DNA from: Pseudomonadota bacterium
Lineage (GTDB): Bacteria; CALINM01
Direction of reading: 5' to 3'
NCBI GenBank assembly: GCA_026418415.1
Contig: JAOABK010000005.1
Coordinates: forward strand, 1,943-65,942
DNA: 64,000 nucleotides
The notes under the pieces were generated by a model. The model did not search any database, was not told where the DNA came from, and was given only the letters and a program-made list of their open reading frames with translations. This document shows positions 1 through 64,000 of this stretch, piece by piece. The first letter of the stretch is position 1. Every line of letters begins with the position of its first letter. Made by a program: the position numbers and the translations under genes.

Positions 1-2434
1 TACATGTTTTATCAGAACTTATAAGAACTTGAGCTTTATTGTTGCCAATATCTATACAATCCCCACTCCATCCAATAAAAACAGAATTTGATGATGGATT
101 CGCGGTTAGTGTTATTAGACTTCCATAAAGGTACATTTCATTACAATCATTACCACAAGAAATACCTAATGGAGAACTATTTACTAACCCTGTTCCTGTG
201 CCAGTTTTTAAAACATTTAATTTGTAAGAATTTAATCCGAAAAATACTGATAATTCGCATGGGCCTGTAATAATATCTGTTGTAAAAATATTACCATTAA
301 GTGTGCCACCACAATCACTATAAACCTCTTGTATATGATAGTTAGTATTTGGAGTGATTGTGCAATTATAAAATAGATTATTACCCTGCTGATTGATAAC
401 ACAATTAATTTTCCCGCCTTCCTCAGGTACAGGATAAGTAAATATCAATGTTGAATTAATGTCTTCTTCAAAAGTCACATTTAAAGTGCAATTAGCAGTA
501 ATTGGGGATGTACGAAAATAATTACCACTAAGAATTCCAGGACAACCATATACAGTGGATACTTTATATCCTATATTCGGGATTAAGTGGAACAAAACGC
601 TATCTCCATAATTTACTACAAAATTACCATCTGGTGAAACTCTTCCATTTGGTCCCACATTGACATTAATATTAAAAGTCTGTATGCCAAAATTAGCGAC
701 TATGTTTTTATTTGAATTAAGAGTGATTGTTATGGAATTTTGAGTAGAATTAACATCTCCAGACCAGTGGGTAAAGAAAGTCCCTGGAGAAGAATTATAA
801 GCGGTCAGTGTGATCTGTTGGTCTGTATACTCTTTAGTACAAATTGAATTAGGGCAGTATATACCGCTCCCCATAACAAACCCATAGTCATTATTAGGTC
901 TAATTGAAACATTAACAGAAGCTTTCCCTATCCCCGAAAGAGTTAAAAAAGTACTTGTTGATAAAGCACCATCTGAATTAAAGCCTACATAGGCAATCCT
1001 ATTTCCAGTAATAGTCGGTTTGAATTTAACCTCTATAATACATTGATTTAATTGAGGAATTTGGATCCCTACACAATTATTTGTTATTATAAAATCATTA
1101 ACATGACCCTCTACAATAAGATCGCTAATATTTAAAGTTTTAAAGCCAGTATTGTATAAAGTAAATGTTTCTGTTATTGAATTATTGCCAAGTCCAATTA
1201 TACCAAAATCCTTGCTCGCGGGTTCGATATAAATGTCTGAAAAACCAATTTGTGTTGGAAGATCTTTATAGGAAACAGTTGAACCATCACCTAACTGGCC
1301 AGTTCTATTATCACCCCATGTCCACAATGTATAATCATAAGAATTCTGTGAACTTGTTTTTATACCTATTACATTCATACCTCCTATAGCTACTGTTAAC
1401 CAATTTTGTTCATTATCTATATTTATAGGATATCCAATAGGATTGGGAGCATTTCCGTTTCCTAACTGTCCCATTAAATTCAATCCCCATATCCATAATC
1501 TACCATTATTTAAAGCTACTCCATTATACATACCCGCAGTTATCATAGTTCGAGGAGAACTTAAATCAAGGGGAGGGAGATTAGGATTTAATGTAGGAAC
1601 TGGCACGAAGCCCCCTGAAGTCATACCTAAAGTTCCATTATTGTGTCCCCAAACATAAAGTTCGCCATTTTGCTTGACGCCATAGGAAAAGAAATGTCCT
1701 GCTGAAACTAATGCCCAATCAGATGCATCTCCTATCTTTTTAGGAGATAAGACATCATTTATATTTCCAGCATTACCATCACCAATCTGTGCAAAAAAAT
1801 TACCACCCCATGCATATAGTTCACCATTATTTGAAATAGCTAACACATGGTCAAAGCCAGTCGAGATTTTTGTAAATGTAACACCTTCTGGGATTAAAAC
1901 TCTTATAGGAAATCTACTCGAAGTTTTGCGGTTATCCCCTAATTGGCCAGCACCACCATCTCCAAAGGCCCATAAAGATCCATCTGATTTTCTTGCAATG
2001 GTAAAAAATCCCCCCGCATAAACTTCAGTCCAATCATTGTCATTACCTATTTTAACAGGATAATTAACCCTATAATAATCATATCCTAACCCCAACTGCC
2101 CGAATGAGTTGTCACCCCATCCCCATAATGTTCCATCCTCTTTTATTGCTACCGTATGACTATAACCTGCTGATACATCCTTCCATCTCGATTGCCCACC
2201 TACTAAAACGGGTAAAGATCTATCAGTATTTGTTCCATCTCCAACCTGACCATCGTTATTTCTCCCCCAAGACCATAGCTTACCATCTGGTTTTAAAACA
2301 AGCATATGTGCGGTATAAGAATTTTCAACACCATTACCACTTACCACAACTTTTGGCTTAATTGGCTCAAAGGAATACAATAAATTTGCATTTAAAAACA
2401 ATATCAGAGAGATTAGATATAATTTCTTCAGCAT
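1..2434 (-). CDS. Secreted RCC1-repeat (regulator of chromosome condensation-like beta-propeller) protein with a C-terminal beta-rich region. The 5' part only is present; the 3' end lies beyond the window start.
   Basis: Manual minus-strand translation from ATG at 2434 gives MLKKLYLISLILFLNANLLYSFEP (signal peptide). It is followed by repeated WGxNxxGQLGxG / WAWGxNxxGQLG blades typical of RCC1/ATS1 repeats. The frame stays open to position 1. The ORF track misses it because it runs off the window. Confidence 0.75.
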   Translation of the reverse strand, partial: MLKKLYLISLILFLNANLLYSFEPIKPKVVVSGNGVENSYTAHMLVLKPDGKLWSWGRNNDGQVGDGTNTDRSLPVLVGGQSRWKDVSAGYSHTVAIKEDGTLWGWGDNSFGQLGLGYDYYRVNYPVKIGNDNDWTEVYAGGFFTIARKSDGSLWAFGDGGAGQLGDNRKTSSRFPIRVLIPEGVTFTKISTGFDHVLAISNNGELYAWGGNFFAQIGDGNAGNINDVLSPKKIGDASDWALVSAGHFFSYGVKQNGELYVWGHNNGTLGMTSGGFVPVPTLNPNLPPLDLSSPRTMITAGMYNGVALNNGRLWIWGLNLMGQLGNGNAPNPIGYPINIDNEQNWLTVAIGGMNVIGIKTSSQNSYDYTLWTWGDNRTGQLGDGSTVSYKDLPTQIGFSDIYIEPASKDFGIIGLGNNSITETFTLYNTGFKTLNISDLIVEGHVNDFIITNNCVGIQIPQLNQCIIEVKFKPTITGNRIAYVGFNSDGALSTSTFLTLSGIGKASVNVSIRPNNDYGFVMGSGIYCPNSICTKEYTDQQITLTAYNSSPGTFFTHWSGDVNSTQNSITITLNSNKNIVANFGIQTFNINVNVGPNGRVSPDGNFVVNYGDSVLFHLIPNIGYKVSTVYGCPGILSGNYFRTSPITANCTLNVTFEEDINSTLIFTYPVPEEGGKINCVINQQGNNLFYNCTITPNTNYHIQEVYSDCGGTLNGNIFTTDIITGPCELSVFFGLNSYKLNVLKTGTGTGLVNSSPLGISCGNDCNEMYLYGSLITLTANPSSNSVFIGWSGDCIDIGNNKAQVLISSDKTC

Positions 2435-3332: not shown

Positions 3333-4010
3333 TTACTCCCTAAGCTTTTCTTCAACAAATTCTTTTAAATCGTAGAAAGTATAATATGGCTCACCGATAA
3401 ACCTTTTAATATCATTCTTTTCTTTTACCAGGGTTTCTATAGTTTCTTTTAATAACATGTCTAATTTTAGACTCTTAGCACAGTCATTATAAAAAATCAG
3501 GGGATGTAAATATGTCCAACTTTCTTTTAACCTATCATACATTTTTATTAAAGATCTGTGAATAATATTTTTGATAGATCTTTCTGTGTATTCATCTTTA
3601 ACAAAAAAATTTTCTAAAAACTCTTTTTTTATTTCCCCACTTAGAAGTTTATTTTTCTGTACTATGAATCCAAAGATTATATTTCCATCAATTTTTATAT
3701 AAAAGATGTAATTTTTGTATTTTGAATTAAGTATAGTAAATGGCAAAAAGGGTTCTTTAAAATTTCTATCAAATGATATTTCAAAATTATAAGGATATAA
3801 CTCAACGTCAATCTTTTGAATGAGACCTGCTAATTCATCTCTTAATTTTGGTATTAAAGGAAATCTTAAATATACTCCTCTATCTCTTACTTCAGCAGAA
3901 ATTAAATTTGAAATATGGTTTTTATATTCAGGAAATTTTTCTTCTAAGCTTTTTAATATCTCAAGGATGGTTACCATAAAGAATAAAAGGAGCGGTTTTA
4001 ACCGCTCCAT
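3333..4010 (-). CDS. Hypothetical protein with no recognisable domain. The true start may be the downstream Met at 3977.
   Basis: Long ORF, 225 aa. The annotated start codon lies inside a GC-rich hairpin, and neither candidate start has a clear Shine-Dalgarno sequence. Confidence 0.45.
   Translation of the reverse strand: MERLKPLLLFFMVTILEILKSLEEKFPEYKNHISNLISAEVRDRGVYLRFPLIPKLRDELAGLIQKIDVELYPYNFEISFDRNFKEPFLPFTILNSKYKNYIFYIKIDGNIIFGFIVQKNKLLSGEIKKEFLENFFVKDEYTERSIKNIIHRSLIKMYDRLKESWTYLHPLIFYNDCAKSLKLDMLLKETIETLVKEKNDIKRFIGEPYYTFYDLKEFVEEKLRE
3978..4008 (-). terminator. Terminator-like or attenuator hairpin followed by a U-tract, immediately upstream of or overlapping the start of the hypothetical gene. 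The stem is GGAGCGGUU/AACCGCUCC and the tract is UUUUAUUCUUU.
   Basis: Perfect 9-bp inverted repeat at 3989..4008, with T-rich run 3978..3988 on the minus strand. A second GC palindrome, GACCCCAGCGGGGTC, lies at 4032..4046. Confidence 0.4.
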
Positions 4011-4109
4011 AAACAGGGAATCTTTTTAACAGACCCCAGCGGGGTCAGCAACCCTCTTTACAATGGGTTACAGGGCGTAACATATATTTTGCTCTTGCTA
4101 CCATATCTT

Positions 4110-4328
4110 TCACCCCCTTTTTTTGTATTCTGTAATTTTTACAACCTGTTGAACACCCGACATATTCTCAAGCTCTGTAGCATCAAAACCAATCACATCT
4201 CCTATTACTCCAATTATAACATGTTTCATCCCTGTTGACTGGTGGATATCAAAATTTTTTGAAATTAGATACTCTTTTACTCTTTCAATATCCTCTTGAG
4301 TTGCTGTGGCTTCCATTATGACTAACAT
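4110..4328 (-). CDS. Free-standing ACT/ferredoxin-like regulatory domain of the type fused to the N-terminus of Thermotoga-type DAHP synthase
   Basis: The 72-aa sequence MLVIMEATATQEDIERVKEYL...HVIIGVIGD...VVKITEYK matches, from memory, the pattern of the Thermotoga maritima DAHPS N-terminal regulatory domain. It lies directly downstream of chorismate mutase. Confidence 0.5.
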   Translation of the reverse strand: MLVIMEATATQEDIERVKEYLISKNFDIHQSTGMKHVIIGVIGDVIGFDATELENMSGVQQVVKITEYKKRG

Positions 4329-4330
4329 AA

Positions 4331-12455: not shown

Positions 12456-13876
12456 TTCACTTTTAATATCTCGATTTTTATTTTGCCGATAAGCATCGCA
12501 ACATCTTCCATATTGTCCTCATCGGTGAGCTTTAAGTGTGTTGCATCGGCAGGAAACTGACCAAATGTAGCATCTACCGGAAAAAAAACGCCATCAATAT
12601 AAACCTCGTTCCATGCATGATAGAGAAACCCTTTATTTTCCCTTGAATATGCGATTCCCCCTACGATTCTTGTAGGAATTCCAATACTTCTTAAAAGGGC
12701 AGTTGTAAGCATGGCATGAGCTTCACATTCTCCTTCTTTTGTTATAAGGACTTCAAGAGCACTTGACCTGTCACGTAACCTTTTCTTAATATTCTTGTTA
12801 ACCCATGTAACTATAGCCTTTGCTTTTTCACTATTATCTTTAATCCCCCTTGTAATATCTTCCGCAAGATCTTTAATCTTCTTATTGTTTTTTTGAATTT
12901 TTGGTGTTTCTCTAAGATATTTTTCTATATTTATATCTTCTTTAAGGATTTTTTCTGACCCTTTAGTTGTCAATGATATTAAATGAATGCCGTCCTTGAT
13001 TTCTACTTTTTGGTAGGAACTTTCAGGTATTTTAAAATTACCAGCGCCCTTTAAAGCTAACTTTAACTCCTTGACCTCACCTATTATTGGCTTATCAACA
13101 GGTACCAAGCTATAAGAAAATAAATCATACAGAGATAATTCTCCATCAAATTTAATAGCCTCTTCCTTAGAAAGTTTTTTCATTGTAAATCCATGAATGG
13201 ATTCTTCCTTAAAAATATCACCGTTTTCAAGGATTTCTGATTCTATCTCTATATTTCCCAATCTTTGCTTTAGTGGATAAACCTTTTTTCCTTCTATAAA
13301 TTTAGGTGTACCTATCTCCATTATGATGTCTTCTTTTTTCTGCAAAGCTTCTACAAAAACCTTGTATTCCTTCTTTTTGCCTTCCTTTATTCCATCTTGC
13401 CATAACAAGAAGCCAGCAGAAGCAAGAGGCATATAATAGTCCTCAATTTCTAAAGTCTGAACACTACCCCCAGTTTCTATTCTTAGCACTATTTGCTTCC
13501 CCTGAAGACTTCCAATAATCCTTAAATCTGAATCACCAATTTGTTGTCTGTAATTAAAATATAAAGTCTTTTTTGACTCTCCATCTATAATAATCTCTTC
13601 ATTTAATATCGTATTAACTACATCATTCTCCAATTTCAATCTGATTAAGGCATTTCCATATAAATAAAATATTTTTTTGTTTTCAAGAAGTGCTTCATAG
13701 GCACTTCCATGAAAGTATCCAATCTTTTTATCTTGAAAAAACAATCCTAAATACTCGTTTTTAAGTTCATTAACGATTTTTATTGATGGTTTCTCAAAGG
13801 TATACCCTTTTTCACCACTACATGCTAATAAGAGAAAAAAGAAGAATAAAAAAAAGCGTTTAAAATTTCCAATCAT
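12452..13876 (-). CDS. Transglutaminase-like (Cys-His-Asp) domain lipoprotein
   Basis: Lipobox LLLACSG; C-terminal GECEAHAMLTTALLRSIGIPTRIV...YHAWNEVYIDGVFFPVDAT transglutaminase core. Confidence 0.75.
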   Translation of the reverse strand: MIGNFKRFFLFFFFLLLACSGEKGYTFEKPSIKIVNELKNEYLGLFFQDKKIGYFHGSAYEALLENKKIFYLYGNALIRLKLENDVVNTILNEEIIIDGESKKTLYFNYRQQIGDSDLRIIGSLQGKQIVLRIETGGSVQTLEIEDYYMPLASAGFLLWQDGIKEGKKKEYKVFVEALQKKEDIIMEIGTPKFIEGKKVYPLKQRLGNIEIESEILENGDIFKEESIHGFTMKKLSKEEAIKFDGELSLYDLFSYSLVPVDKPIIGEVKELKLALKGAGNFKIPESSYQKVEIKDGIHLISLTTKGSEKILKEDINIEKYLRETPKIQKNNKKIKDLAEDITRGIKDNSEKAKAIVTWVNKNIKKRLRDRSSALEVLITKEGECEAHAMLTTALLRSIGIPTRIVGGIAYSRENKGFLYHAWNEVYIDGVFFPVDATFGQFPADATHLKLTDEDNMEDVAMLIGKIKIEILKVN

Positions 13877-14343
13877 GGTCTTTCTATAGATAGTATTTCA
13901 AATTCCTTTACACCAATTGGAACTTGAACCTTAACGACATCCCCCTCTCTTTTACCAATCAAGGCTTTACCTATGGGAGAGGTATATGATATTTTGCCAA
14001 TATTAACGTCTGCTTCATCCTCTGATACTATCTGATATGTGAATTCTTCATCTGTATTTAAGTCAAGTATTGTGACCTTTAACCCAAAGGCTACCTTATC
14101 TGTTGGTAACTTGGAAGGGTCAACAATAACTGCTCTGCTTAATTTCCCCTCTAACTCCCTAATTTTTGCTTCTATCATGCCCTGTCTTTCTTTTGCAGCA
14201 TCGTATTCTGCGTTTTCGGAAAGATCTCCATGAGCCCTTGCTTCAGCAATGTCTTTAACTACTTTAGGTCTTTCTACCTTTTTTAAATGCTCTAATTCTC
14301 TTTGTAATCTTTCATAGCATTCCTTTGTCATTGGATAGTTCAT
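13873..14343 (-). CDS. greA: Transcription elongation factor GreA
   Basis: 156 aa; HGDLSENAEYDAAKERQ coiled-coil tip and C-terminal FKBP-like domain. Confidence 0.9.
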   Translation of the reverse strand: MNYPMTKECYERLQRELEHLKKVERPKVVKDIAEARAHGDLSENAEYDAAKERQGMIEAKIRELEGKLSRAVIVDPSKLPTDKVAFGLKVTILDLNTDEEFTYQIVSEDEADVNIGKISYTSPIGKALIGKREGDVVKVQVPIGVKEFEILSIERP

Positions 14344-14345
14344 TG

Positions 14346-17300
14346 TTATACCCCCTTTCCAGACCGATAGTATTCTTTTATTGACATAACCTTTTTATAG
14401 CCCTTTAAAAGTTCTGGTATAGCAAAACATCCAGCCTTTGCAGCTGAAATTGTTGTAAAATAAGGTACCCCCATCTCTAAGGCAGTCCTTCTAATTAAAT
14501 AGGAATCTTCTAACTCTTTCACCCCAAAAGTTGTATTTATAATTAAATCTATCTCTCCATTTTTTATCATATCAACAATGTTTGGTCTTCCTTCAATAAC
14601 TTTTAAAACAGGTTCATTTTCAATTCCTCTATCTTTTAGATACAGAGAAGTTCCTTTTGTACACACAATCTTAAATCCATACTCTTTTAAAAGCTTTGCT
14701 ATCTCAACTACGTTCTTTTTATCATCATCCTTCACACTTATAAAAACAGTTCCTTTAAGGGGAATACTATTGCCCGCAGCAATCTGAGACTTTGCAAAGG
14801 CAAGATATGGATTATCTGCTATTCCCATAACTTCACCAGTTGACTTCATCTCTGGTCCTAAAACTGTATCTACACCCCTAAACTTAATAAAGGGAAACAC
14901 CGCTTCTTTCGCAGAATAATAATGGGGTACTATCTCTTTAGTAAATCCTAATTCTTTTAAAGTCCTTCCTACCATGCACTTAGCAGCTAATTTTGCAAGA
15001 GGCACTCCAATTGCTTTGCTTACAAAAGGGATAGTACGAGATGCCCTTGGATTCACCTCTAAAATATAGATTTCTTTATCTTTTATTGCAAATTGAATAT
15101 TCATAAGTCCAATTACATTTAGCTCTTTTGCTAAAAGTTTAGCTTGCCTCATAATCTCGTCAATTAAGTCATTTGATAGAGAAAATGGCGGAATCAAACA
15201 AGCACTGTCACCAGAATGAACACCCGCCTCTTCAATGTGCTCCATTATACCACCAATTACACAATCTCTCCCATCGCTTATTGCATCTACATCTACTTCA
15301 ATAGCATCCTTTAAAAATTTATCTATTAAAACTGGATGTTCTGAAGAAGCTCTTACCGCTTCATTCATATATCTCTTAAGACTCTTTCTATCATAAACAA
15401 TTTCCATTGCTCTTCCACCTAAAACATAGGAAGGTCTAACCATAACTGGATACCCAATTCTTTCGGCTACCACTATTGCTTCTTCTTCAGATCGAGCAAT
15501 TCCACTTTCTGCCTGTTTCAAGCCTAATTTAAGCAGTATTTCTCTGAAACGCTCTCTGTCTTCAGCTTTATCTATACTATCAGAGCTTGTTCCTAAAATT
15601 TTAACACCCGCTTTTTCAAGAGGTACTGCTAATTTGAGTGGTGTCTGGCCACCAAATTGAACAACTATTCCAATAGGTTTTTCTCTTTCAATAATTGTTA
15701 AAACATCTTCGTAAGTCAAGGGTTCAAAATAAAGCCTATCGGCGGTATCATAATCAGTACTTACTGTTTCTGGATTACAGTTAATCATGATAGTTTCATA
15801 ACCTTCCTCTTTCAGCGCAAAAACTGCGTGAACACAGCAATAATCAAACTCAATTCCTTGACCAATTCTATTGGGACCACCACCTAAAATTATCACCTTT
15901 TTCTTATCTGTTGGGTGTGCTTCTTCTTCCTCTTCGTAAGTTGAATAAAGATAAGGGGTTTTTGCTCTGAACTCTGCAGCGCAGGTATCAACCATTTTAT
16001 AGACTGGCCATATTTTTCTCTTTTTTCTTAACTCTCTAATCTTAATTTCATCGACTCCAAAAATCTTAGCAAGCCTTCTATCAGAAAAACCCATTTTCTT
16101 TGCTTCGGCAAGAGTCTCATTTGAAAGGCTTTCAATATTAAAATCCCTATCCTCTGTAAGCTTTAAAAGTCCCTCTTCAAAGTCAATAATTTCCTTTATA
16201 TTTTTCAAAAACCATCTATCAATTTTTGTATGCTCATAAACCTCTTCTATATCCATCCCATATCTAAAAGCTTCTCCAACATACCATAATCTCTCTGCAT
16301 CGGGATTTCTTAATTTATCAATAATTATCTTTTTCTTCTCCTTTGTGTCTAAATTTCCAGTAATTTTAATATCAAATCCATAACTATCTATTTCAAGTGA
16401 TCTTATTGCTTTTTGTAAAGCTTCCTTAAAAGTTCTTCCAATAGCCATGACTTCACCGACAGATTTCATCTGGGTTCCAAGCCTTGCATCAGCCTTTGGA
16501 AACTTTTCAAAAGCAAATCTCGGAATCTTAACTACTACATAATCAAGAGCTGGCTCAAAAGATGCTGGGGTCTCACCAGTGATATCGTTTTTAATTTCAT
16601 CAAGTGTATATCCAATAGCAAGCTTTGCTGCAATCTTTGCAATTGGATAGCCAGTTGCTTTGGAAGCAAGGGCGGAACTTCTTGAAACACGGGGATTCAT
16701 CTCTATTACAACCATCTCACCATTTTCTGGATTTATCGCAAATTGTATATTCGAACCACCTGTATCTACTCCAATTTCCCTTATTATTTTAATCGCCGCA
16801 TCCCTCATTATTTGATATTCTTTATCGGTTAGAGTTTGAGCAGGTGCAACTGTAATACTATCCCCAGTATGAATACCCATTGGGTCTAAATTTTCAATTG
16901 AACAAATAATTACAACATTGTCCATCCTATCCCTCATAACCTCTAACTCAAACTCTTTCCATCCAATAACTGATTCTTCTATTAGAACTTGATGAACAGG
17001 ACTTAAATCAAGCCCCCATTTAACCATCCTTTCATATTCTTCCATGTTATAGGCAATACCTCCACCTGTACCTCCCAAAGTAAAAGCAGGACGAATAATA
17101 GCTGGAAATTTAACATGTTTTATTACATCCATAGCCTCATTCATACTTGTTGCAAGCCCACTTTTAGGAACCTTTAAACCAATCTTTTCCATAGATTTCT
17201 TAAATAATTCCCTATCTTCACCTTTTTTTATGGCTTCTATATTTGCACCAATAAGCTTAACACCATATTTATCAAGCACACCTCTTTGATGCAAGAATAG

Positions 17301-17597
17301 TGTTAAATTTAAAGCTGTCTGACCACCTAAAGTTGGCAATAGTGCATCAGGTCTCTCTTTTTTAATAATTTCCTCTAAATACTCTACCGTCAATGGCTCA
17401 ATGTAGGTTACATCAGCAAGTTCTGGATCAGTCATTATTGTTGCAGGATTTGAATTAACAAGAATTACTTTATACCCCTCCTGTTTGAGAGCCTTTACTG
17501 CCTGGGTACCAGAATAATCAAACTCACAAGCCTGTCCTATAACAATTGGTCCAGAACCAATTACAAAAATACTCTTGATGTCTTCTCTTTTGGGCAT
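14346..17597 (-). CDS. carB: Carbamoyl-phosphate synthase large subunit
   Basis: 1083 aa; duplicated ATP-grasp halves; C-terminal MGS-like domain. Confidence 0.95.
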
Positions 17598-17621: not shown

Positions 17622-18755
17622 TTACTTAGTACTTTCTATCAAATCATAAAATCTTTTAAATAGGTAAGAAGCATCATGGGGACCTGGAGATGCTTCTGGA
17701 TGATATTGTACTGAAAAAATTGGATATTCTCTATGCCTTAATCCTTCAACAGTATTGTCATTTAAATTAATATGGGTTACTTCTGCTTTGCCTTTGAGTG
17801 AATCTATGTCAACTGCAAATCCATGATTTTGTGATGTAACCTCAACCTTACCAGTTGTTAAATCTTTAACTGGTTGATTACCACCCCTGTGTCCAAATTT
17901 AAGTTTGAAGGTTCTACCACCTAAGGCAAGTCCCAGGATCTGATGTCCTAAACAGATTCCAAACATAGGTTTTTTTGTAATTAGCTTCTTAACATTTTCT
18001 ATAGCATATTTAACTGGTTCTGGATCTCCCGGTCCATTTGAAAGGAATACCCCATCAGGATTTATTTTTAAAACCTCTTCTGCAGGAAAATCTGCGGGGA
18101 CAACAAGAACTCTAAATCCCGCATTAACTAAATTTCTCAAAATGTTGTACTTAATGCCATAATCATAGGCTACTATGAAATACTTACCATCATCTTTCCT
18201 TACATATCCCTTTTCCAATGTCCAGAGTCCTTGATTCCACTGATAGGGCTGGTCAGTTGTTACATATCTAACAAGATCAAGCCCTGCCATTGATGGTACC
18301 TCTTCTAATTTTTCCATCAACTTATTCTTATCAAACTCAATGGTAGATATAATTCCATTCATAGCACCCTTTTCTCTTAAATGGGAAGTTAGCGCTCTTG
18401 TATCAATACCTTCTATACCAACGATATTATATTTTTTGAGAAATTCTTCTAAACTACCTTTGCTTCTATAATTGCTTGGATATTCCTGATACTCTTTCAC
18501 CACAAACCCTGCTACAAATGGTTTTCTTGACTCCATATCCTCTTCGTTGATGCCATAATTACCAATTTGAGTATATGTCATGGTAACTATCTGCTTATCA
18601 TAAGAAGGATCTGTCAATATTTCTTGATAACCACACATAGAAGTGGTAAAAACAACTTCACCTGCGGTTTCTCCTTCAGCTCCAAAGTTGTAGCCAGTAA
18701 ACATTCTACCGTCTTTTAATAATAAAACTGCCTTCTTTTTAGTCTTTAACTTCAA
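17622..18755 (-). CDS. carA: Carbamoyl-phosphate synthase small subunit (glutamine amidotransferase)
   Basis: 377 aa; GATase class I triad region GICLGHQ...HGFAV. Confidence 0.95.
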
Positions 18756-20016
18756 AAACCTGACCTCCTTTTATAGTATAAACAGCTCTGCCTTTCATTT
18801 TTTTACCAAGAAAGGGAGTGTTATAGCTTTTAGATGCTATATTACTTTTTTCTAAAATCCATTCGCAATGGGGATCTATAATTGTTAAGTTTGCTTCTTC
18901 GCCTTCTTTTATTACTGGTGGTCTTAATCTTAAAATTTGATGAGGTTTTCTCGATAATTTTTCTGCCAGGGTCTGAAAATCAATTACACCAAGCCTTACA
19001 AGCTCTAAAGATAATGGAACCATCGTTTCTAATCCAATCATTCCAAAAGATGCAGATTCAAACTCTCTTTCTTTCTCATCAATATGATGGGGAGCATGGT
19101 CTGAGGCAATTACATCTATAGTACCATCCTTAAGCCCCTCTCTTATTGCTAATATATCATCTTTATTTCTTAACGGTGGATTGACCTTAGCAAAGGTATT
19201 ATATCCAAGCACCTCTTCTTCGGTAAGTAAAAAATAATGTGGACACGTTTCACAGGTAACATTAATACCAGCTTTCTTTGCCCATCTAATTATATTTACA
19301 GATTCTTTTGTACTAACATGGGCAATATGGATCCTTGCATTTGTAAGTTTTGCCAGCATTAAATCTCTAAAAATTCCAATGATTTCAGACTCCCTCGGGA
19401 TACCTTTTAAACCCAATTTTAAAGATATTTCACCTTCATTTATCTGTCCATCTTTGCTCAATTTCTTCTCTTCAGAATGACAAATTATAGGCATATCGAA
19501 GCATTTCGAATATTCCATTGCCTTTCTTAAAATTTCGGCATTTTCTACTGGATTACCATCGTCTGAAAAGGCAACTGCACCAGCATCTTTCAGGTCTCCC
19601 ATCTCAACTATTTGCTCACCTTTAAGGCCTATAGTAATTGCAGATATTGGGTAAACATCTACAGGTAAATCAGTTTCTTTTGACCTACACTTTATGTAAT
19701 GTGTCACAGTAGCATTGTCATTAACTGGATTTGTATTAGCCATACATGCAACAGCAGTAAAACCACCCTTCAATGCTGATTTTTGTCCTGATTCTATATC
19801 TTCTTTGTACTCAAAACCGGGTTCTCTTAAATGTACATGCATATCTAAAAAACCAGGAAAAACCAATAAATCTTCATTTTCTATTGTAAAATCAACATTC
19901 TTAGCTTGTATCGGTTTTTCAGAAACTCTTTTAATTATGCCCTTTTCTATAAGTAAACTTCTTCTAAATAGCCCTGAAGAAGTAACTATTGTTAAATTAT
20001 CTATTTTAATTTTCAA
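18739..20016 (-). CDS. pyrC: Dihydroorotase
   Basis: [14 protein letters not shown] metal-binding motif; amidohydrolase fold; 425 aa. Confidence 0.9.
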
Positions 20017-20950
20017 CTTTACCTCCGGTTAATAAAAGGTATAAAACCGCCATTCTTACCGCTACACCTTTTGTAACCTGATCAAGAACAACACACCTTT
20101 TATCATCAAGCACATCTGATGTTATCTCAAGCCCTCTATTAACTGGTCCTGGATGCATTATTATTGCATCTTTTTTTGCAAAGTTTATTGAGTTTTTATT
20201 TATTGAAAAACATCTTGCGTATTCTCTTTCTGTTGGATAAAATCCACTTCCCATTCTTTCTTTCTGAATTCGCAATGCCATCACTACATCAGCATCATAA
20301 AGCCCTTCTTCAAGATTATAATATATTTCGGCACCAAGTTCCCTGAATGTTTCGGGTATAAAAGTTGCTGGCCCAACAAACCTAACTTCATTACCCAACT
20401 TCTTGAGGGCAATTAAATTAGACCGTGCTACTCTACTATGTAGAATATCCCCAACAATTGCTATTTTTAGACCACTAAGGATATTTTTATATTCCCATAT
20501 CGTCAATATGTCAAGCAATGCCTGAGTTGGATGTTCATGTCTACCATCACCACCATTTATGACAGAAGCTTTAACTCTCTTTGACAAAAATTCAGCCGCT
20601 CCTGAGAAACTATGCCTTATTATTATTGCATCAATACTCATTGCCTCTAAATTTTTTACTGTATCAAGGAGTGTTTCACCTTTGCTTACACTGCTTGCGG
20701 AAGTAGATATGTTGATTGTGTCTGCAGAAAGGATTTTAGCAGCCATTTCAAAAGAAGTACGAGTTCTTGTGGAAGGCTCATAAAAAAGGGTCAAAACACT
20801 CTTACCTCTTAGTGTTGGCACCTTCTTTACATCCCTTTTTAGAACCTCTTCAAAGGATTTTGCTGTTTCAAGGATATATATCAGCTCTTCCTTACTAAGG
20901 GGCTCGAGCGAAACGAGATCTTTATGATTCCACTTTATTTTTTCTGTCAT
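20006..20950 (-). CDS. pyrB: Aspartate carbamoyltransferase catalytic subunit
   Basis: STRTR carbamoyl-phosphate motif; HPTQ; 314 aa. Confidence 0.95.
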   Translation of the reverse strand: MTEKIKWNHKDLVSLEPLSKEELIYILETAKSFEEVLKRDVKKVPTLRGKSVLTLFYEPSTRTRTSFEMAAKILSADTINISTSASSVSKGETLLDTVKNLEAMSIDAIIIRHSFSGAAEFLSKRVKASVINGGDGRHEHPTQALLDILTIWEYKNILSGLKIAIVGDILHSRVARSNLIALKKLGNEVRFVGPATFIPETFRELGAEIYYNLEEGLYDADVVMALRIQKERMGSGFYPTEREYARCFSINKNSINFAKKDAIIMHPGPVNRGLEITSDVLDDKRCVVLDQVTKGVAVRMAVLYLLLTGGKVEN

Positions 20951-21494
20951 TTTTTTCCCTCAAAACAACACCATCTTTTCCATCAACTTCTTTAAACATA
21001 ACTTCTACAATTTCTTTTCTTGATGTTGGAACTACTTTACCAACAAAATCAGCCTGAATCGGTAATTCCCTATGTCCCCTATCAATCAGAACTGCAAGTT
21101 GTATTCTCTTTGGTCTTCCAAAATCAAAAATGGCATCTATTCCCGCTCGAACCGTTCTGCCAGTAAATAACACATCATCAATTAAAACAACATTTTTATC
21201 GTCTATACTAAAAAGCAGTTCCGTGGTTTCTATTTTATGTTTAGGGCTTATTTTAAAGATATCATCTCTATACATTGTTATGTCAATATCTCCTGAAAGC
21301 ACTTCTATGCCTTCCATCTTCTTAATTGCATTTTTAATTCTTTCTTTCAGCAGACTTCCCCCTTTTTTAATTCCTATGAGAACTAAATCAGACAAATCTG
21401 GATTTTTTTCCATTATTTCATGGGCAATACGATTAATAACCCGAGGAAAGGTTTTCTCATCAATAATAATGATCTCTTTCTTAGACTTACTCAT
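20922..21494 (-). CDS. pyrR: Bifunctional pyrimidine operon regulator / uracil phosphoribosyltransferase PyrR
   Basis: 190 aa; PRTase motif VVLIDDVLFTGRTVRAGIDAI; first gene of the pyr operon. Confidence 0.9.
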   Translation of the reverse strand: MSKSKKEIIIIDEKTFPRVINRIAHEIMEKNPDLSDLVLIGIKKGGSLLKERIKNAIKKMEGIEVLSGDIDITMYRDDIFKISPKHKIETTELLFSIDDKNVVLIDDVLFTGRTVRAGIDAIFDFGRPKRIQLAVLIDRGHRELPIQADFVGKVVPTSRKEIVEVMFKEVDGKDGVVLREKNDRKNKVES

Positions 21495-21499
21495 AAAAA

Positions 21500-21519
21500 A
21501 ACCTCCCTGCAGGGAGGTT
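21500..21519 (-). promoter_or_regulatory. GC hairpin that sequesters the GGAGG Shine-Dalgarno of pyrR, followed by U7 and the ATG. It is a candidate PyrR-responsive attenuator or translational operator.
   Basis: Minus-strand RNA AACCUCCCUGCAGGGAGGUUUUUUUAUG. CCUCCC/GGGAGG is a perfect stem. The loop-3' arm CAGGGAGGUU resembles the PyrR box CAGAGAGGCU. Confidence 0.55.
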
Positions 21520-21564
21520 TTCTATATTGCTATACTTTAACGCAACAATATTCATCAAAGCTAA

Positions 21565-21593
21565 ATTTTAATTGTAAAACAAATTTATGTCAA
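21565..21593 (-). promoter_or_regulatory. Sigma70-type promoter of the pyr operon (TTGACA-17-TAAAAT)
   Basis: Minus-strand TTGACA at 21593..21588; -10 TAAAAT at 21570..21565; 17-nt spacer; about 60-nt leader to ATG. Confidence 0.5.
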
Positions 21594-21691: not shown

Positions 21692-23686
21692 TCAGATTTT
21701 GCAAACCACTCCACAAACCTCATTGAAATATAAAATAGCTCTATTAATATCACTCCCCCTTCCTACAAATATAATAATATCGTTCTCCATAAACTCAAAA
21801 TCTGGATCAGGGTTAACAATCAACTGTTCACCTCTTTTTATTGCTATTATTGTTACATTTGTTTTTTTTCTAATCTCCAGTTCTCTTATGCTTCGATTAA
21901 TTAGACTGCATTTGTCTGTAACAAGGTAACTTTCTACCTCAAGTTCCTTCAGAGCTGAAGTATGGTCATATAAACTATGTTTTGGAATTGTAACCCTTCT
22001 CAATGCTTTGTAGCTATCTTCTCTAAGGCTTTCTGCAATATCAAGTATTATATTACTTGGATAGTGGTAATATTTTAAGACCCTTGAAAAAATTTCAATG
22101 GATGTCTCGAGCTCTTCAGGAATTACCTCATTTGCACCTAATCTTTTTAGATCCTCTACTTCAAGAACGTATCTTGTTCTAACTATTATATATACAGTTT
22201 TGTTCTCCTTTCTAATTAATGAAACAATCCTTCTTGTTGCTGCAGCATCTGAGATGGCAATAACGACAGCCCTTGCCCTATCAAGACCTAAATGTTTCAA
22301 AACTTCTATACTCGTTCCATCGCCATAATATATTGGTTCTCCCCTTTTTTTCATTTCAGCAACAGTCACACTATTTATTTCAAGAATTACATAGGGAATA
22401 TTTAGCTCTTTCAAGATTTTCGCTAAATTTCTACCGTTTAAGCCAAAGCCTATTATAATAACATGATCATTTTTCTTTACTGCTCTGATCTCTTCATATT
22501 CCTTTGACTTTGTGTATAAATATTTTAGTATATTAAAAACTTCTGTCTTCTCTGAAATTTTATATGCAAAATTAATCATAAAGGGAGATAAAATCATAGT
22601 CATCACAGTTACCGATAATACCAATTGATAGACATCATCTCCTATCAAGTTCGCACTTTTTCCTGCAAATGCCAAAACAAAAGAAAATTCTCCTATCTGA
22701 GCAAGGCCAATTGAACTTATTATTGAAACTCTTTGAGATAATCTAAGGAAATAGGCTACAACTAAAATAGAAAATACTTTTATAAAAATTACAAGAAAAA
22801 GACTGAATAATACAAATATTAAATTTTGATAGATAAAATTTAGATTCATAAGCATTCCAACAGAAACAAAGAAAAGCCCCATAAAACTCTCTTTAAAGGG
22901 TATTATGTCTGACAAAGCCTGATGGGCATATTCTGATTCAGATATCATCAATCCTGCTAAAAATGCCCCAAGGGCCAGGGAAAGCCCTACATAGGAAGTT
23001 AAAATTGCGATACCTAAACAAATAACTATAATTGTGATAATAAAGAGCTCCCTACTCTTTGTTTTTACTATTTGATGCAAGAAATAGGGAAAGAGAAATC
23101 TCGCTCCTAAAAGAACAACAACAATTATCAAGCCTGCTTTAAATATTTTAAAAAAAATATCTTTTGCTGTAATACCCTCTCCTGCAAGTATTGGAACAAG
23201 CAGCATTAGAACTACAACAAATAGATCTTGAAAAATAAGTATCCCAATCATCGTTTTGCCATGGGGAGTATCAATATCTCCTTTATCTGCAAGTATTTTT
23301 AAGACAACTGCAGTACTGCTTAATGAAATAAGAAAACCTATAAAAATAGCAATTTTTAGGTTATTAAAATAATAATAGGCTAATATAAAAATTAATGCAG
23401 TTGTTATTAAAACTTGAAGTAATCCACCACCAAAAACAACCCTTTTTATTTTCAATAATTTTTTCAGAGAAAACTCGATACCAATTGAAAAAAGGAGCAA
23501 AACAACCCCAATCTCAGCAATTACCTCAATGCTATGGGTATTTGTTATAATACCAAGCATAGATGGCCCAATTAAAATTCCAGCCAGAAGAAATCCTACG
23601 AGTGAGGGTATTTTTACTTTTGTAAGTATAAAAACTATAATAGCGGAAACAATAAAAATTATCTCAATTATCCCGAGAAATTCCAT
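21692..23686 (-). CDS. kefB: Monovalent cation:proton antiporter of the CPA2 family, KefB/KefC-like, with C-terminal RCK (TrkA-N/TrkA-C) domains
   Basis: 664 aa; about 12 TM segments; Rossmann motif IIIGFGLNGRNLA; TrkA-C tail. Confidence 0.8.
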   Translation of the reverse strand: MEFLGIIEIIFIVSAIIVFILTKVKIPSLVGFLLAGILIGPSMLGIITNTHSIEVIAEIGVVLLLFSIGIEFSLKKLLKIKRVVFGGGLLQVLITTALIFILAYYYFNNLKIAIFIGFLISLSSTAVVLKILADKGDIDTPHGKTMIGILIFQDLFVVVLMLLVPILAGEGITAKDIFFKIFKAGLIIVVVLLGARFLFPYFLHQIVKTKSRELFIITIIVICLGIAILTSYVGLSLALGAFLAGLMISESEYAHQALSDIIPFKESFMGLFFVSVGMLMNLNFIYQNLIFVLFSLFLVIFIKVFSILVVAYFLRLSQRVSIISSIGLAQIGEFSFVLAFAGKSANLIGDDVYQLVLSVTVMTMILSPFMINFAYKISEKTEVFNILKYLYTKSKEYEEIRAVKKNDHVIIIGFGLNGRNLAKILKELNIPYVILEINSVTVAEMKKRGEPIYYGDGTSIEVLKHLGLDRARAVVIAISDAAATRRIVSLIRKENKTVYIIVRTRYVLEVEDLKRLGANEVIPEELETSIEIFSRVLKYYHYPSNIILDIAESLREDSYKALRRVTIPKHSLYDHTSALKELEVESYLVTDKCSLINRSIRELEIRKKTNVTIIAIKRGEQLIVNPDPDFEFMENDIIIFVGRGSDINRAILYFNEVCGVVCKI

Positions 23687-27219: not shown

Positions 27220-29457
27220 TTAAAAGTTAAATGATAAATTCGCTTTAAAGCTAAAAGGAGCACCAACACCATATGTTGTTCCAGCCACCGCATCATCCAT
27301 AGCATTAATTAACGAAACATATTTCTTATCAAAGATATTATCAAAATCTAAAGACAGCTTTAGAGTCTTTATTTTTCCTAAATTCTCCATAGTATAGCCA
27401 ATACTTAAATCAAAAACTGTATATGAAGGAATTCTTTCTTTATGCTCAACATCACCATATCTTTTCCCTATATATCTCATCTTAGGTATAACTTCAAAGC
27501 CCTTTATCTTAGCTATAAATCCAGATGTTATAACCCATTTAGGCACGTCAACAACCTGTCTACCATCTGTTTTTAACATTTGTCCAGAATAGGTAATATT
27601 TCCATCATAAGTTAAGTTTGTATAAGCAGGGTTTAGATAAAAGATAAATTTATCTGTGAAATAAATATTAGCACCAAATTCAAATCCATAGCCATCCGCT
27701 TTGCCAATATTTTGCTGATAATTTACAGGCTTCCCAGTTAAAGGATCTATAACTCTTGGATCTGTTATAACTGTAAGGAGATTTTTATTTTTTGAAAAAA
27801 ATAATGTCGGATTGAATTCAAAATAATTGGTTCTTATTCTCAGACCAATATCAAGATTATTGCTTTCTTCAATATCTCTATCTTTAAAAAGATCTTTTAG
27901 TGTTATGCCTGCCGATAAAAACCTTGTCCTTAATCTGTTATACAAAGTAACTAATGGCAAGTAAGCATAGGGTCTTATAAAGGTTTTGCCATAACTAATA
28001 TAGGATTCTACATTGTCATTAAAAGAATAAGACAAGCCTGCAGTAGGTAGCCATATATCGTACGTTACTTTCTCTCTATCAAGATCAATAGCCCTCTGAA
28101 GAACTGGGATACCACTTATAAACCTCGTTATATAACCCTGACTATCTGAATCTTCAAATCTAAAATATTTTAAACCTGCCTGCCAGTTTAATTTATATAT
28201 CGTGCCAGCAACCTTAAGATACGGACTCTTGATAAATGCATCTCCAGAAGTAGCTGTTACGCCATACCCTCTATATCTAAGAGAGCCATCTGGATTTAAC
28301 CAGTAATTTTCAGTATATATGTTCATATTTGAGATTTCATAATGATACCCACCGATTAACTTTATATTTTCTGAATCAAAAGTCAGCTCTCCTATCAATC
28401 CCTTTCTCTCTATGTCTCTTGTCCTGTCTAAAACGCCCGGTCTTCCCTGTATGTTTTGAGTACCATCCCTTAACTTTGCATCTTCCAATGATAGATAAGG
28501 TTTTAAGACAAGTTTTAACTTATCTGCTAATTTTGCTGAAAAAGCTATATACATATCTTTGTTTCTATGTGTTTCCCAGTTATATTTATAGTATAAATAA
28601 TCCTTAGCTGGTACACCCAAAAGAGAACTATTAAAATCTAGGCGATAAAAGGTACTCAGATTTTCTACAAGTTTGTAAGTTAGAAACCTATATTTATAAT
28701 GTTCAACTTCATTAAAATTACTCCATAATTTTATCTCTATCTTTTCTCCAATTGGTTGAACAAGAGTAAAATTAAGATTATTTCTTGGGCTTATTTCTCC
28801 TGGACCTTTCCATTTATCCTGTTCAGAAAAAGAATAGGATAGAGAGAACTTAGTATTAAGATGATAAATAGCGCCAGTATCAAGTCTTGCATAGGTTTTC
28901 TTATAATCAAAGTTTCCAAGAGACTGAGAAAACTTAATGCCAAAATTCTCCTTAGCCCAAAGTGGTCTAAGCTCCAAAGCTCCTGCTCTATTACCAATAC
29001 CAGAACCAAGATCTGCGGGAACCGCACCTTTATAAATCGCTACACTCTCGAAATTTTCAAGATCATAAATATAAGCCCTTGGTCCTATTGGATTTCCACC
29101 ATAGTTAGGAATACCTTCAACAGTTAGAGCACCTAAATATCCCCTAACTCCTCTTATCCTTAAGTTAGTTTGTTCAGAAGCCATATTATTTGGATCAATA
29201 CTTTCATAAACAATTCCCGGTAAAATTGTAATCGTTTCATAAATATTTTGTTTTGCCTTATCACCAACGATTTCAATCCCCTTGCTTGTTATTTCTGTTC
29301 CAGTATAAACTGTCTCACCTGTCTGTTTTGTCGGTATAACAATTTTATCTCCTATAACAATAACTTCTTCTAATTCAGTTTCTTTTTCTTTTCCTAAAAC
29401 ATATGTAAAACTAAACAATAAAAAACTAATAAGAAGCATTAATCTGCATATAAACAT
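27220..29457 (-). CDS. TonB-dependent outer-membrane receptor
   Basis: 745 aa; signal peptide; plug domain then 22-strand barrel; terminal aromatic residue (…NLSFNF). Confidence 0.85.
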   Translation of the reverse strand: MFICRLMLLISFLLFSFTYVLGKEKETELEEVIVIGDKIVIPTKQTGETVYTGTEITSKGIEIVGDKAKQNIYETITILPGIVYESIDPNNMASEQTNLRIRGVRGYLGALTVEGIPNYGGNPIGPRAYIYDLENFESVAIYKGAVPADLGSGIGNRAGALELRPLWAKENFGIKFSQSLGNFDYKKTYARLDTGAIYHLNTKFSLSYSFSEQDKWKGPGEISPRNNLNFTLVQPIGEKIEIKLWSNFNEVEHYKYRFLTYKLVENLSTFYRLDFNSSLLGVPAKDYLYYKYNWETHRNKDMYIAFSAKLADKLKLVLKPYLSLEDAKLRDGTQNIQGRPGVLDRTRDIERKGLIGELTFDSENIKLIGGYHYEISNMNIYTENYWLNPDGSLRYRGYGVTATSGDAFIKSPYLKVAGTIYKLNWQAGLKYFRFEDSDSQGYITRFISGIPVLQRAIDLDREKVTYDIWLPTAGLSYSFNDNVESYISYGKTFIRPYAYLPLVTLYNRLRTRFLSAGITLKDLFKDRDIEESNNLDIGLRIRTNYFEFNPTLFFSKNKNLLTVITDPRVIDPLTGKPVNYQQNIGKADGYGFEFGANIYFTDKFIFYLNPAYTNLTYDGNITYSGQMLKTDGRQVVDVPKWVITSGFIAKIKGFEVIPKMRYIGKRYGDVEHKERIPSYTVFDLSIGYTMENLGKIKTLKLSLDFDNIFDKKYVSLINAMDDAVAGTTYGVGAPFSFKANLSFNF

Positions 29458-29608
29458 TTTTCCCTCCTAAGTTTTTTACTTTTCACCTCCCTTGTGATAA
29501 AATTAGTGTTGCGGGAGGTTTATACCTTCTTCGCAGGGGCAGAAAAGAACTCATACTTGGCAGGGTACTGGTCTTTTCTGCCCTTTTCAATAAAACTTAT
29601 ATTTCCTG
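29458..29608 (-). promoter_or_regulatory. Structured 151-nt leader between exbD and the TBDR gene. It has a 12-bp hairpin and a CCUCCC anti-SD that can pair with either of two GGGAGG/GGAGGG sites.
   Basis: Stem 29537..29548/29572..29583, GGGCAGAAAAGA/UCUUUUCUGCCC; anti-SD at 29513..29518; decoy GGGAGG at 29486..29491; true SD at 29462..29467. Confidence 0.4.
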
Positions 29609-63605: not shown

Positions 63606-63633
63606 AATAAAAAAGGTCTGCACAAGGCAGACC
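63606..63633 (-). terminator. Rho-independent terminator downstream of rplQ (stem GGTCTGC/GCAGACC, then U6)
   Basis: Hairpin 63615..63633; on the minus strand it is followed by UUUUUUAUUAU (plus-strand A-run 63609..63614). Confidence 0.6.
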
Positions 63634-63658
63634 TTTCTATTTTTAAATTATCTTATTT

Positions 63659-64000
63659 TTAAGATTCTTTTTCTTTCAGAGCAATATCAAAATCAACCCA
63701 CTCAAGAATTGCCATAGGTGCTGCATCTCCAAGTCTTCTTTGAAGCTTTAAAACCCTTGTATATCCTCCCTTTCGATTGTTGAATTTAGGTGCTATTTCA
63801 GAAAAGAGTCTTTTTAAAGCCTCATCATCTCTTAGAAATGCAAAGGCCATGCGTCTTGCATGTAAATCTCCCTTTTTACCAAGAGTAACCATTTTGTCTG
63901 CATATCTTTTTACAACCTTAGCCTTTGTTTCGGTCGTTTCTATCCTTCCATGCTTTATTAATGATACTACCATATTCTTAATCATTGCAATACGATGAGG
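63659..64000 (-). CDS. rplQ: 50S ribosomal protein L17 (5' end lies beyond the window end)
   Basis: The frame is open through the window end and reads ...HRIAMIKNMVVSLIKHGRIETTETKAKVVKRYADKM.., as in L17. The track start at 63985 is an internal Met. Confidence 0.85.
   Translation of the reverse strand, partial: PHRIAMIKNMVVSLIKHGRIETTETKAKVVKRYADKMVTLGKKGDLHARRMAFAFLRDDEALKRLFSEIAPKFNNRKGGYTRVLKLQRRLGDAAPMAILEWVDFDIALKEKES

Follow-up and report, generated by a model that had tools for sequence, protein, structure and literature searches.

Expression of pyrBI in Escherichia coli is controlled by attenuation that is sensitive to uridine triphosphate (UTP) as well as by reiterative transcription, with U-rich pause tracts being essential. 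For Thermus strain ZO5, a ribosome-mediated attenuation that dispenses with an antiterminator has reportedly been proposed, and the PyrR protein of mycobacteria is said to act by repressing translation. The PyrR box, the RNA element to which PyrR binds, has a terminal loop and upper stem of the ARUCCAGAGAGGYU type, below which come a bulge rich in purines (UUUAA...) and the lower stem (PMC7430163). Leaderless mRNAs are defined by an AUG at or close to the 5′ end (PMC9031893), and leaderless short open reading frames (ORFs) that unmask a sequestered ribosome-binding site (RBS) have been documented in mycobacteria (Canestrari et al., bioRxiv 10.1101/834739). Here, we describe the leader of a pyrR-pyrB-pyrC-carA-carB operon found on a 64,000-nt stretch of DNA from a Pseudomonadota bacterium (contig JAOABK010000005.1 of assembly GCA_026418415.1; the whole stretch is referred to as the window). 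In this leader, a promoter, a short ORF, and a hairpin followed by seven U's directly precede the pyrR start codon. On balance, the arrangement is probably a leaderless leader-peptide attenuator with translational coupling, apparently without the canonical PyrR-binding loop.

Promoter, hairpin, and U-tract ahead of pyrR

The leader was found on the minus strand, and the coordinates of its parts are collected in Table 1. An earlier interpretation made from the letters of the window (hereafter the sequence-only reading) had proposed a promoter of the form TTGACA-17-TAAAAT, and this promoter is present on the minus strand at the place assigned to it; it agrees with the consensus at 11 of 12 positions and was the top promoter-like site in a 10-kb scan. 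The same reading put the length of the leader at about 60 nt; in our analysis, the hairpin follows the promoter after ~62 nt. Based on the promoter geometry, transcription is predicted to start 0 to 3 nt before the leader ORF that is described below. At its 3′ end, the leader reads AAAACCUCCC-UGCA-GGGAGG, followed by seven U's and the pyrR AUG at position 21494. The sequence-only reading had correctly placed a hairpin and then a U7 tract before this AUG; its statement that GGAGGUU is itself followed by U7 counted two U's twice, as the total is seven. The 3′ arm of the stem is also, as had been recognized, the GGAGG Shine-Dalgarno (SD) sequence located 7 nt before the pyrR AUG.

Folding of the leader gave a minimum free energy (MFE) of -22.7 kcal/mol (z = -4.2 compared with dinucleotide shuffles), and a value of -14.3 kcal/mol was calculated for the hairpin alone. 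When compared with the features of intrinsic terminators, the hairpin was found to have a stem of ~10 bp (10-12) with five G-C pairs and G-U pairing present, a 4-nt loop, a U7 tract, and an A4 tract. Our own scan detected just three strong structures of this hairpin-plus-U-tail type in the whole 64-kb window, and the pattern CCTCC-N3-8-GGAGG was found to occur once in the 64 kb, with 0.08 occurrences expected. Overall, the hairpin is built like an intrinsic terminator and is predicted to bury the pyrR SD within its stem.

The comparative sample consisted of 160 pyrR loci identified by scans of genome and metagenome contigs and one more locus (L165) retrieved by exact look-up. Twelve distinct leaders make up the window clade (the window, L001 to L004, L081 to L086, and L165), in which the PyrR proteins are 66 to 90% identical. 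All 12 of these leaders were found to include a TTGAC(A/T) -35 element, a -10 element, a hairpin of the form AAAACCUCC(C)-loop-(G)GGAGG, exactly seven U's, and the ATG. The loops were found to vary among the relatives and included UGCA, ACAA, CAAA, UCAG, UACG, GCAAG, UCAAU, UCAAG, and AAAA. The sequence TTT-R-ATG is invariant in 9 of the 12 leaders, with the 5 nt preceding it divergent, and no conservation between the ATG and the hairpin was detected in the clade beyond TTT-R-ATG-A. The genes upstream of the promoter also vary among the relatives and, therefore, the promoter-hairpin module travels with pyrR. RNAalifold analysis of a MAFFT alignment of 11 leaders returned 3 pairs, with indels in the loop shifting the register of the arms, and the leaders were then folded singly. 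The hairpin was part of the MFE fold in all 11 leaders (-13.6 to -17 kcal/mol). This terminator hairpin alone recurred among the 11 MFE folds, with no conserved competing (antiterminator) helix detected in them, and no G-rich segment able to pair with CCUCCC was found in the upstream leader.

A leader ORF overlapping the hairpin

Further analysis revealed a short ORF, unremarked in the sequence-only reading, that spans both hairpin arms as well as the U-tract and ends at a TAA stop codon (21489..21487) within codons 2 and 3 of pyrR. An ORF of 19 to 22 codons is open in all 12 related leaders (11 plus L165), which represent at least four diverged subgroups. When the interval between the ATG and the hairpin was examined in 11 leaders, no in-frame stops were detected in the frame of the ORF compared with 18 and 12 in the other two frames; by shuffling, the probability of an open frame was 0.20 to 0.63 per leader, with a product over the 11 leaders of ~9e-7. 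The leader stop was found always to overlap the start of pyrR, either as ATGA (TGA at +2..+4) or as ATGAGTAA/ATGAATAA (TAA at +6..+8). Three combinations of frame and hairpin were identified (NLP.GRFFYE, KTSYGRFFYE, and KTS..EVFL), in which the codons across the 5′ arm spell N-L-P in one group and K-T-S elsewhere, and those across the 3′ arm G-R-F-F-Y-E or R-E-V-F-L. The sequences from the ATG to the hairpin are unrelated among the leaders, and the leader peptide is not conserved. With the peptide variable and three frame/hairpin combinations in use, selection therefore acts on the open frame and the RNA stem and not on the protein. At the L165 locus, the Joint Genome Institute (JGI) gene call (584..1195) adds 13 residues to pyrR from a GTG inside the leader, through the hairpin; this extension is probably an annotation artefact resulting from the unrecognized leader ORF.

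The position of the leader ATG was next compared with that of the -10 element. The distance between the two was 9 nt in nine of the leaders and 11 nt in the other three (L002, L004, and L084), and an SD was found in none of the 12. In the window, as judged from a crude gene map, an SD precedes 3 of the 24 operon-first genes, pyrR included, and at least 8 of the 24 have a -10-like hexamer that ends 5 to 10 nt before the start codon. With SDs few and close -10 hexamers many, leaderless initiation therefore looks common in the source organism, which appears to make wide use of leaderless mRNAs, and a leaderless start of the leader ORF is plausible. Starts that have a proximal -10 hexamer and no SD include those at 6228(-), 6386(+), 12168(-), 23686(-), 36709(+), 42453(+), and 54227(+), among others.

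Taken together, the comparison of the 12 leaders reveals joint conservation of five parts, namely promoter, ORF, hairpin, U7 tract, and stop-start overlap, and the absence of the PyrR box, as detailed below. We infer that the leader ORF may be translated and that transcription may terminate at the hairpin.

PyrR box and PyrR protein

The sequence-only reading had suggested that the loop and 3′ arm of the hairpin resemble the PyrR-binding box and had named a covariance scan as a means of checking this. When the scan was run, the resemblance was lost: the Rfam model RF00515 scored the window leader at 20.1 bits (E = 2 in a 451-nt search) compared with a gathering threshold of 54, and had zero matches at this threshold in the window and 20 loci, the clade loci included. 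Because the gathering threshold of RF00515 also misses visibly canonical boxes of distant phyla (L005, L006, L008, and L015), we built our own covariance model (R1) of 36 positions from nine boxes, namely those of L005, L006, L008, L015, L020, L031, L129, and two Thermus loci. R1 scored the training boxes at 39 to 51 bits and the non-training boxes of L095 and L149 at 36.7 and 27.9 bits, respectively. R1 matched neither the 64-kb window nor the clade loci, and the window hairpin scored 3.6 bits with the filters off. The CAG of the loop is not conserved, and GGAGGUU is invariant because the SD and the U-tract account for it. Furthermore, every base of the GGAGG is paired within a perfect stem, and the bulge and the lower stem are absent from the window hairpin. 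By these covariance models, the window element does not belong to the PyrR-binding-site RNA family. The translational mode of the mycobacterial type that had been put forward for this leader fails for the same reason, as no PyrR box was found and terminator anatomy is present. What is retained of the earlier proposal is that one element has the anatomy of both a terminator and an SD mask; its third role, as a structure stabilized by PyrR, is not, as the box is missing.

The protein encoded downstream of the leader (record MCX7769909.1) is a clear member of the PyrR family, based on a score of 237 bits to NF003549 and E-values of 1e-51 to 1e-55 to the PyrR chains in the PDB (6.5e-55 for 1non). 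The positions critical for RNA binding in Bacillus subtilis PyrR, which we take to be T18, H22, R141, and R146, are occupied in the window protein by N, H, R, and Q, respectively. Residue Q146 was found in 12 of the 12 clade PyrRs tabulated (those of 11 distinct leaders and of L087, which duplicates L004, with the table excluding L165). The clade keeps R19, R141, and K152; H22 is kept in most members, and T18 is replaced except in L003. When the comparison was extended to 161 homologues (the window and L001 to L160), R or K was found at position 146 in 11, of which 9 have an R1 box upstream of pyrR; the two that are box-less are Proteocatella loci in which pyrR lies apart from a pyr operon. 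The Thermus PyrR (PDB 1ufr) also has R146. Residue Q146 was found in 147 of the 161 homologues, and the R1 box was detected in none of these 147 within the fetched flanks. Among these homologues, a box was thus seen only alongside R or K at position 146. This correlation between position 146 and the box is independent of the reported mutagenesis and, as the sequences are phylogenetically related, falls short of a formal test.

The homologues with Q146 include most of those from Acidobacteriota and WOR-3/Stahlbacteria as well as the window clade. Since Q146 occurs with no upstream binding loop in many uncultured phyla, the annotated regulatory role of PyrR is doubtful for much of the family, and many of the "PyrR attenuation proteins" of Acidobacteriota and WOR-3/Stahlbacteria may not bind pyr RNA.

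Proposed mechanism and alternative explanations

In the attenuator that we propose, transcription would begin 0 to 3 nt before the 22-codon leader ORF to generate a leaderless or near-leaderless mRNA. If no ribosome were close behind the polymerase at the U7 tract, AAAACCUCCC would pair with GGGAGGUUUU and transcription would terminate, and transcripts that escape termination would keep the pyrR SD buried. A tightly coupled ribosome that had loaded at the 5′ AUG would cover the 5′ arm, such that no hairpin would form and the polymerase would read through to pyrR-pyrB-pyrC-carA-carB. This ribosome would then halt at the TAA in pyrR codons 2-3, beside the exposed GGAGG-U7-AUG, and allow re-initiation at pyrR. 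The 5′ arm is 34 to 40 nt from the ATG in all of the leaders, and the U-tract is completed 56 to 61 nt after the A of the ATG; with the general footprints of ribosome and polymerase, a close ribosome would cover the 5′ arm when the U-tract is completed. The leader stop is 4 to 8 nt past the pyrR AUG, and a stop next to a freed SD is the standard setting for re-initiation. Since no competing helix was found in the 11 folded leaders, only a ribosome on the leader ORF could prevent the hairpin. Instead of PyrR binding, the pyrimidine signal would presumably be an effect of UTP on the speed of the polymerase or on its choice of start site. In the kinetic version that we favor, which resembles E. 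coli pyrBI, low UTP would slow the polymerase, at the latest over the seven U additions, and let the ribosome catch up. The logic would be that of a race in which a ribosome loaded at the 5′ end pursues the polymerase, and the attenuator would be very compact, with ~62 nt, no 5′ untranslated region, no antiterminator, and one hairpin serving as terminator and SD mask.

Several points weigh against this mechanism: (i) the leaders show no conserved U-rich pause tracts ahead of the hairpin, with U7 in L003, U5 in L001, and A-rich sequence in L085 and L004, and therefore UTP sensing would rest on the U7 tract and the 5′ TTT alone; (ii) the gene that immediately follows the element is pyrR, an order typical of PyrR autoregulation; (iii) with 9 nt from the -10 element to the ATG, the mRNA may carry 1 to 3 extra nt at its 5′ end; (iv) a Q146 PyrR could bind another RNA feature that is invisible to R1; (v) the weight given to R146 and T18 in RNA binding relies on what mutagenesis has reportedly shown; and (vi) all of the genomes involved are uncultured metagenome-assembled genomes (MAGs).

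A more specific possibility, which we consider unlikely, is that the TTT-R before the leader ATG is the pyrimidine sensor of a protein-free switch that would combine UTP-dependent start choice, leaderless translation, and attenuation. At high UTP, the polymerase would start or stutter on the T-tract, and the extra 5′ U's would spoil leaderless initiation and lead to termination. At low UTP, the first nucleotide of the mRNA would be the purine or the A of the AUG, and the truly leaderless transcript would be engaged by a ribosome that melts the terminator, so that the operon is read. If so, the Q146 PyrR would be reduced to an enzyme.

A regulatory role of PyrR at this leader can be envisioned in two ways. 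PyrR bound to uridine monophosphate (UMP) might stabilize the hairpin as both terminator and SD mask, with the small ORF being irrelevant, as would suit the presence of pyrR directly behind the element, the identity of its product as a bona fide PyrR homologue, and the likeness of GGGAGGUU to the 3′ half of the ARUCCAGAGAGGYU consensus (PMC7430163). However, a canonical box has a top stem of 2 to 3 bp, a purine loop, and a bulge, whereas here the GGAGG is fully paired; the scores of 3.6 bits with R1 and of 20 compared with 54 with Rfam, the unconserved loop, and the failure of Q146 PyrRs ever to accompany a box (0 of 147) point the same way. Moreover, a perfect stem of 10 to 12 bp at -14 kcal/mol needs no stabilizing and has no antiterminator to compete with, and the conserved ORF would be left unexplained; we find this role distinctly improbable. 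A second possibility is that PyrR-UMP acts as in Thermus but through a non-canonical site, binding the 5′ end or the nascent leader to block the leader ribosome and let the terminator form. The layout of an ORF through the terminator does equal that of Thermus, L005, and L008, whose box overlaps the leader SD, and the retention of R19, R141, and K152 in the clade, and of H22 in most members, is in keeping with this idea. It is nonetheless doubtful, as R1 detected no box, conservation from the ATG to the hairpin is limited to TTT-R-ATG-A, and the PyrR of every clade member examined has Q146, with T18 lost except in L003.

Translation alone might also be the target, with the hairpin rarely terminating transcription and the upstream ORF opening the SD under constitutive, temperature, or growth-rate control. 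A stop-start overlap combined with an SD in the 3′ arm is a classic feature of coupling, and the mycobacterial leaderless short ORFs that unmask an RBS offer an analogy. Yet the invariant U7 tract, the A-tract, and the GC-rich stem are textbook anatomy of an intrinsic terminator, such structures are rare (3 in 64 kb), and coupling alone would control pyrR but not the transcription of pyrB through carB, such that we view this explanation as very unlikely. An extremely improbable explanation is that the palindrome serves a dimeric transcription factor as its DNA operator or, alternatively, terminates transcription of the upstream antiporter gene. The element does form a perfect DNA palindrome (AAAACCTCCCTGCAGGGAGGTTTT) and is located 192 nt downstream of the stop of 23686..21692, but among the relatives the spacing of the half-sites varies by 3 to 5 nt; an RNA loop can accommodate such variation but an operator cannot, and this variable arm spacing excludes the operator. 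The terminator of an upstream gene is likewise excluded, as the element stands behind a conserved promoter and travels with pyrR, with upstream genes that differ. Also rejected was a start-site switch of the E. coli pyrC type that shortens the hairpin: the hairpin is ~35 nt from the start, and the choice of start cannot remove an arm.

Operon organization and other structures

The genes of the operon overlap (29 nt for pyrR/pyrB, 11 nt for pyrB/pyrC, and 17 nt for pyrC/carA) or are separated by a small gap (24 nt for carA-carB) and, therefore, internal attenuators have no room. In agreement with the sequence-only reading, no similar elements were found before pyrB or carA, where the genes overlap or abut and the box model has zero matches in the window, and a single site would serve the whole operon, with the hairpin being the sole control element of pyrR-pyrB-pyrC-carA-carB. 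The transcription elongation factor gene greA is probably co-transcribed with carB and the pyrimidine/arginine genes (Table 1). Upstream of the leader is an unrelated Na+/H+-exchanger/TrkA gene (23686..21692, minus strand), and the gap between this gene and pyrR, which holds the leader promoter, is 197 nt.

Table 1. Features of the pyrR leader and of the pyr operon (positions are those of the window)
Feature	Coordinates	Strand	Remarks
-35 hexamer TTGACA	21588..21593	-	TTGAC(A/T) kept in 12/12 related leaders
-10 hexamer TAAAAT	21565..21570	-	17-nt spacer; TAAAAT, TAGAAT, or TATAAT in relatives at equal distance
TTTG, T-tract and purine at predicted transcription start	21556..21559	-	Directly 5′ of leader ATG; start predicted
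Leader ORF MNIVALKYSNIENLPAGRFFYE*	21487..21555	-	22 codons, no SD; ATG 9 nt past -10
A-tract	21518..21521	-	Lengthens stem by pairing with first U's; at least 4 A's in all leaders
5′ arm CCUCCC, anti-SD-like	21512..21517	-	N-L-P or K-T-S when translated, depending on leader
Loop UGCA	21508..21511	-	Differs among relatives
3′ arm GGGAGG, pyrR SD	21502..21507	-	GGAGG 7 nt before AUG, invariant
U7 tract, terminator tail and SD-AUG spacer	21495..21501	-	Exactly 7 T's in 12/12 leaders
pyrR	20922..21494	-	190 amino acids; NCBIfam NF003549, 237 bits, cut-off 138
pyrB	20950..20006	-	Pfam/NCBIfam
pyrC	20016..18739	-	Pfam/NCBIfam
carA	18755..17622	-	Pfam/NCBIfam
carB	17597..14346	-	Pfam/NCBIfam
greA	13873..14343	-	Starts 2 nt past carB

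Other structures were observed in the sampled loci. In a Syntrophales MAG and related metagenome contigs (L007, L088, and L091), a hairpin GAACCUUCCC-auuccaa-GGGGAGGUUU with a U-run was detected ~90-150 nt upstream of pyrR, preceded by a short ORF (MIGIFSLIKMV*) that has its stop at the foot of the hairpin; these loci encode a Q146 PyrR and have no box, and the hairpin may be another box-less, ribosome-dependent pyr attenuator. In L085, a pan motif (RF01749; 39.4 bits compared with a gathering threshold of 36.2) was found at 431..519 on the minus strand, ~1 kb upstream of pyrR.

Within the window, a strong terminator-like hairpin (GGAGCGG-uuaaaa-CCGCUCC with a U-rich tail; 3989..4008, minus strand) is located at the called start of the ORF 3333..4010, and a gene-free stretch of 320 nt (4011..4330) that is richer in GC precedes this hairpin. 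This region may be an unannotated RNA or leader. A second CCUCCC/GGGAGG inverted repeat, with a 21-nt spacer, was identified at 29486..29518 (minus strand) ahead of the SD that belongs to the downstream cluster itself, which encodes a TonB-dependent receptor, an FmdE/DksA-type zinc-finger protein, a periplasmic binding protein, FecCD, and an ABC ATPase. Rfam searches of 3950-4400 and 29440-29640 returned no match. A canonical terminator that looks bidirectional (AAAGGUCUGCcuuguGCAGACCUUU followed by U's; 63612..63636, minus strand) is positioned after the gene 63985..63659 and is one of the three strong hairpin-plus-U-tail structures of the window.

Comparison with known systems

The Thermus layout was re-derived from the sequence of two loci, L161 and L163, that were fetched via the sequence of 1ufr. 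The L161 leader consists of a promoter, the box GGCCUUUAAACCGGUCCCGCGAGGCCGGAAAGGGGGAG, an ATG 4 nt later, and a 28-codon ORF (MERYKGNPGKKPGGGFGLRFFLEVNRAL*) that traverses the terminator GCGGAGGC-uuug-GCCUCCGC-UUCUUUUU and ends within codons 3-4 of pyrR, with the pyrR SD located after the terminator. In both L161 and L163, the leader ORF runs through the terminator and ends over the pyrR start. The same arrangement was found in L005 and L008 (Omnitrophota), and the leader ORF of L020 stops within the loop of the terminator. Leaders of the Thermus type, in which the 3′ end of the PyrR box doubles as the SD of a leader ORF running into or through an intrinsic terminator just ahead of pyrR, were observed in several further phyla, among them Omnitrophota, and in an Actinomycetes MAG as well as unclassified MAGs (L005 at ~2902-3010, L008 at ~492-620, and L020 at ~2864-3000). 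A layout of box, leader ORF, and terminator that had been proposed from one strain therefore occurs in several phyla.

Of the known systems, those of B. subtilis and mycobacteria share individual parts with the window leader. As with the B. subtilis PyrR attenuators, the element is positioned before pyrR, ends in an intrinsic terminator, and has a PyrR homologue encoded downstream; it differs in the absence of the binding loop, the antiterminator, and the anti-antiterminator, and in being a single site compared with three. Translational repression by mycobacterial PyrR has in common with the window a pyrR SD within a stem-loop, but there the stem-loop is the PyrR box and no terminator is present, whereas the window has a terminator and a leader ORF but no box. 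The leaderless short ORFs of mycobacteria are similar in that they form the first cistron and that a ribosome on them keeps the structure sequestering the RBS of the next gene from forming. Those ORFs, however, sense cysteine via polycysteine codons and act on translation, whereas the window leader has no diagnostic codon run, includes an intrinsic terminator, and belongs to the pyrimidine synthesis pathway.

The likeness to Thermus is closer. Both leaders have a promoter followed by a short ORF that runs through an intrinsic terminator and overlaps the start of pyrR, both have no antiterminator, and both precede pyrR-pyrB-pyrC. The differences are that (i) the Thermus leader includes a canonical PyrR box, scored at 51 bits by R1, the 3′ AAAGGGGGAG of which is the leader SD, and Thermus has an R146 PyrR, whereas the window PyrR has Q146; (ii) the pyrR SD of Thermus follows the terminator, whereas in the window the 3′ arm of the terminator is the pyrR SD; and (iii) the window has neither box nor leader SD, and its ATG is 9 nt from the -10 element. 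The window clade looks like a derivative of the Thermus-type leader that has lost the protein-binding part. With pyrBI (pyrL) of E. coli, the window shares a rho-independent terminator traversed by a leader ORF, no required site for a regulatory protein, and a T-tract at the start. In contrast, pyrL has an SD and 44 codons, the SD of the gene that follows is not part of its terminator, and pyrR is missing from E. coli; ahead of its terminator, pyrBI also shows a defined U-rich pause region, which is not conserved in the window clade. Judged by its sequence features, the window element is a stripped-down relative of the Thermus-type leader and would be close in function to E. coli pyrBI.

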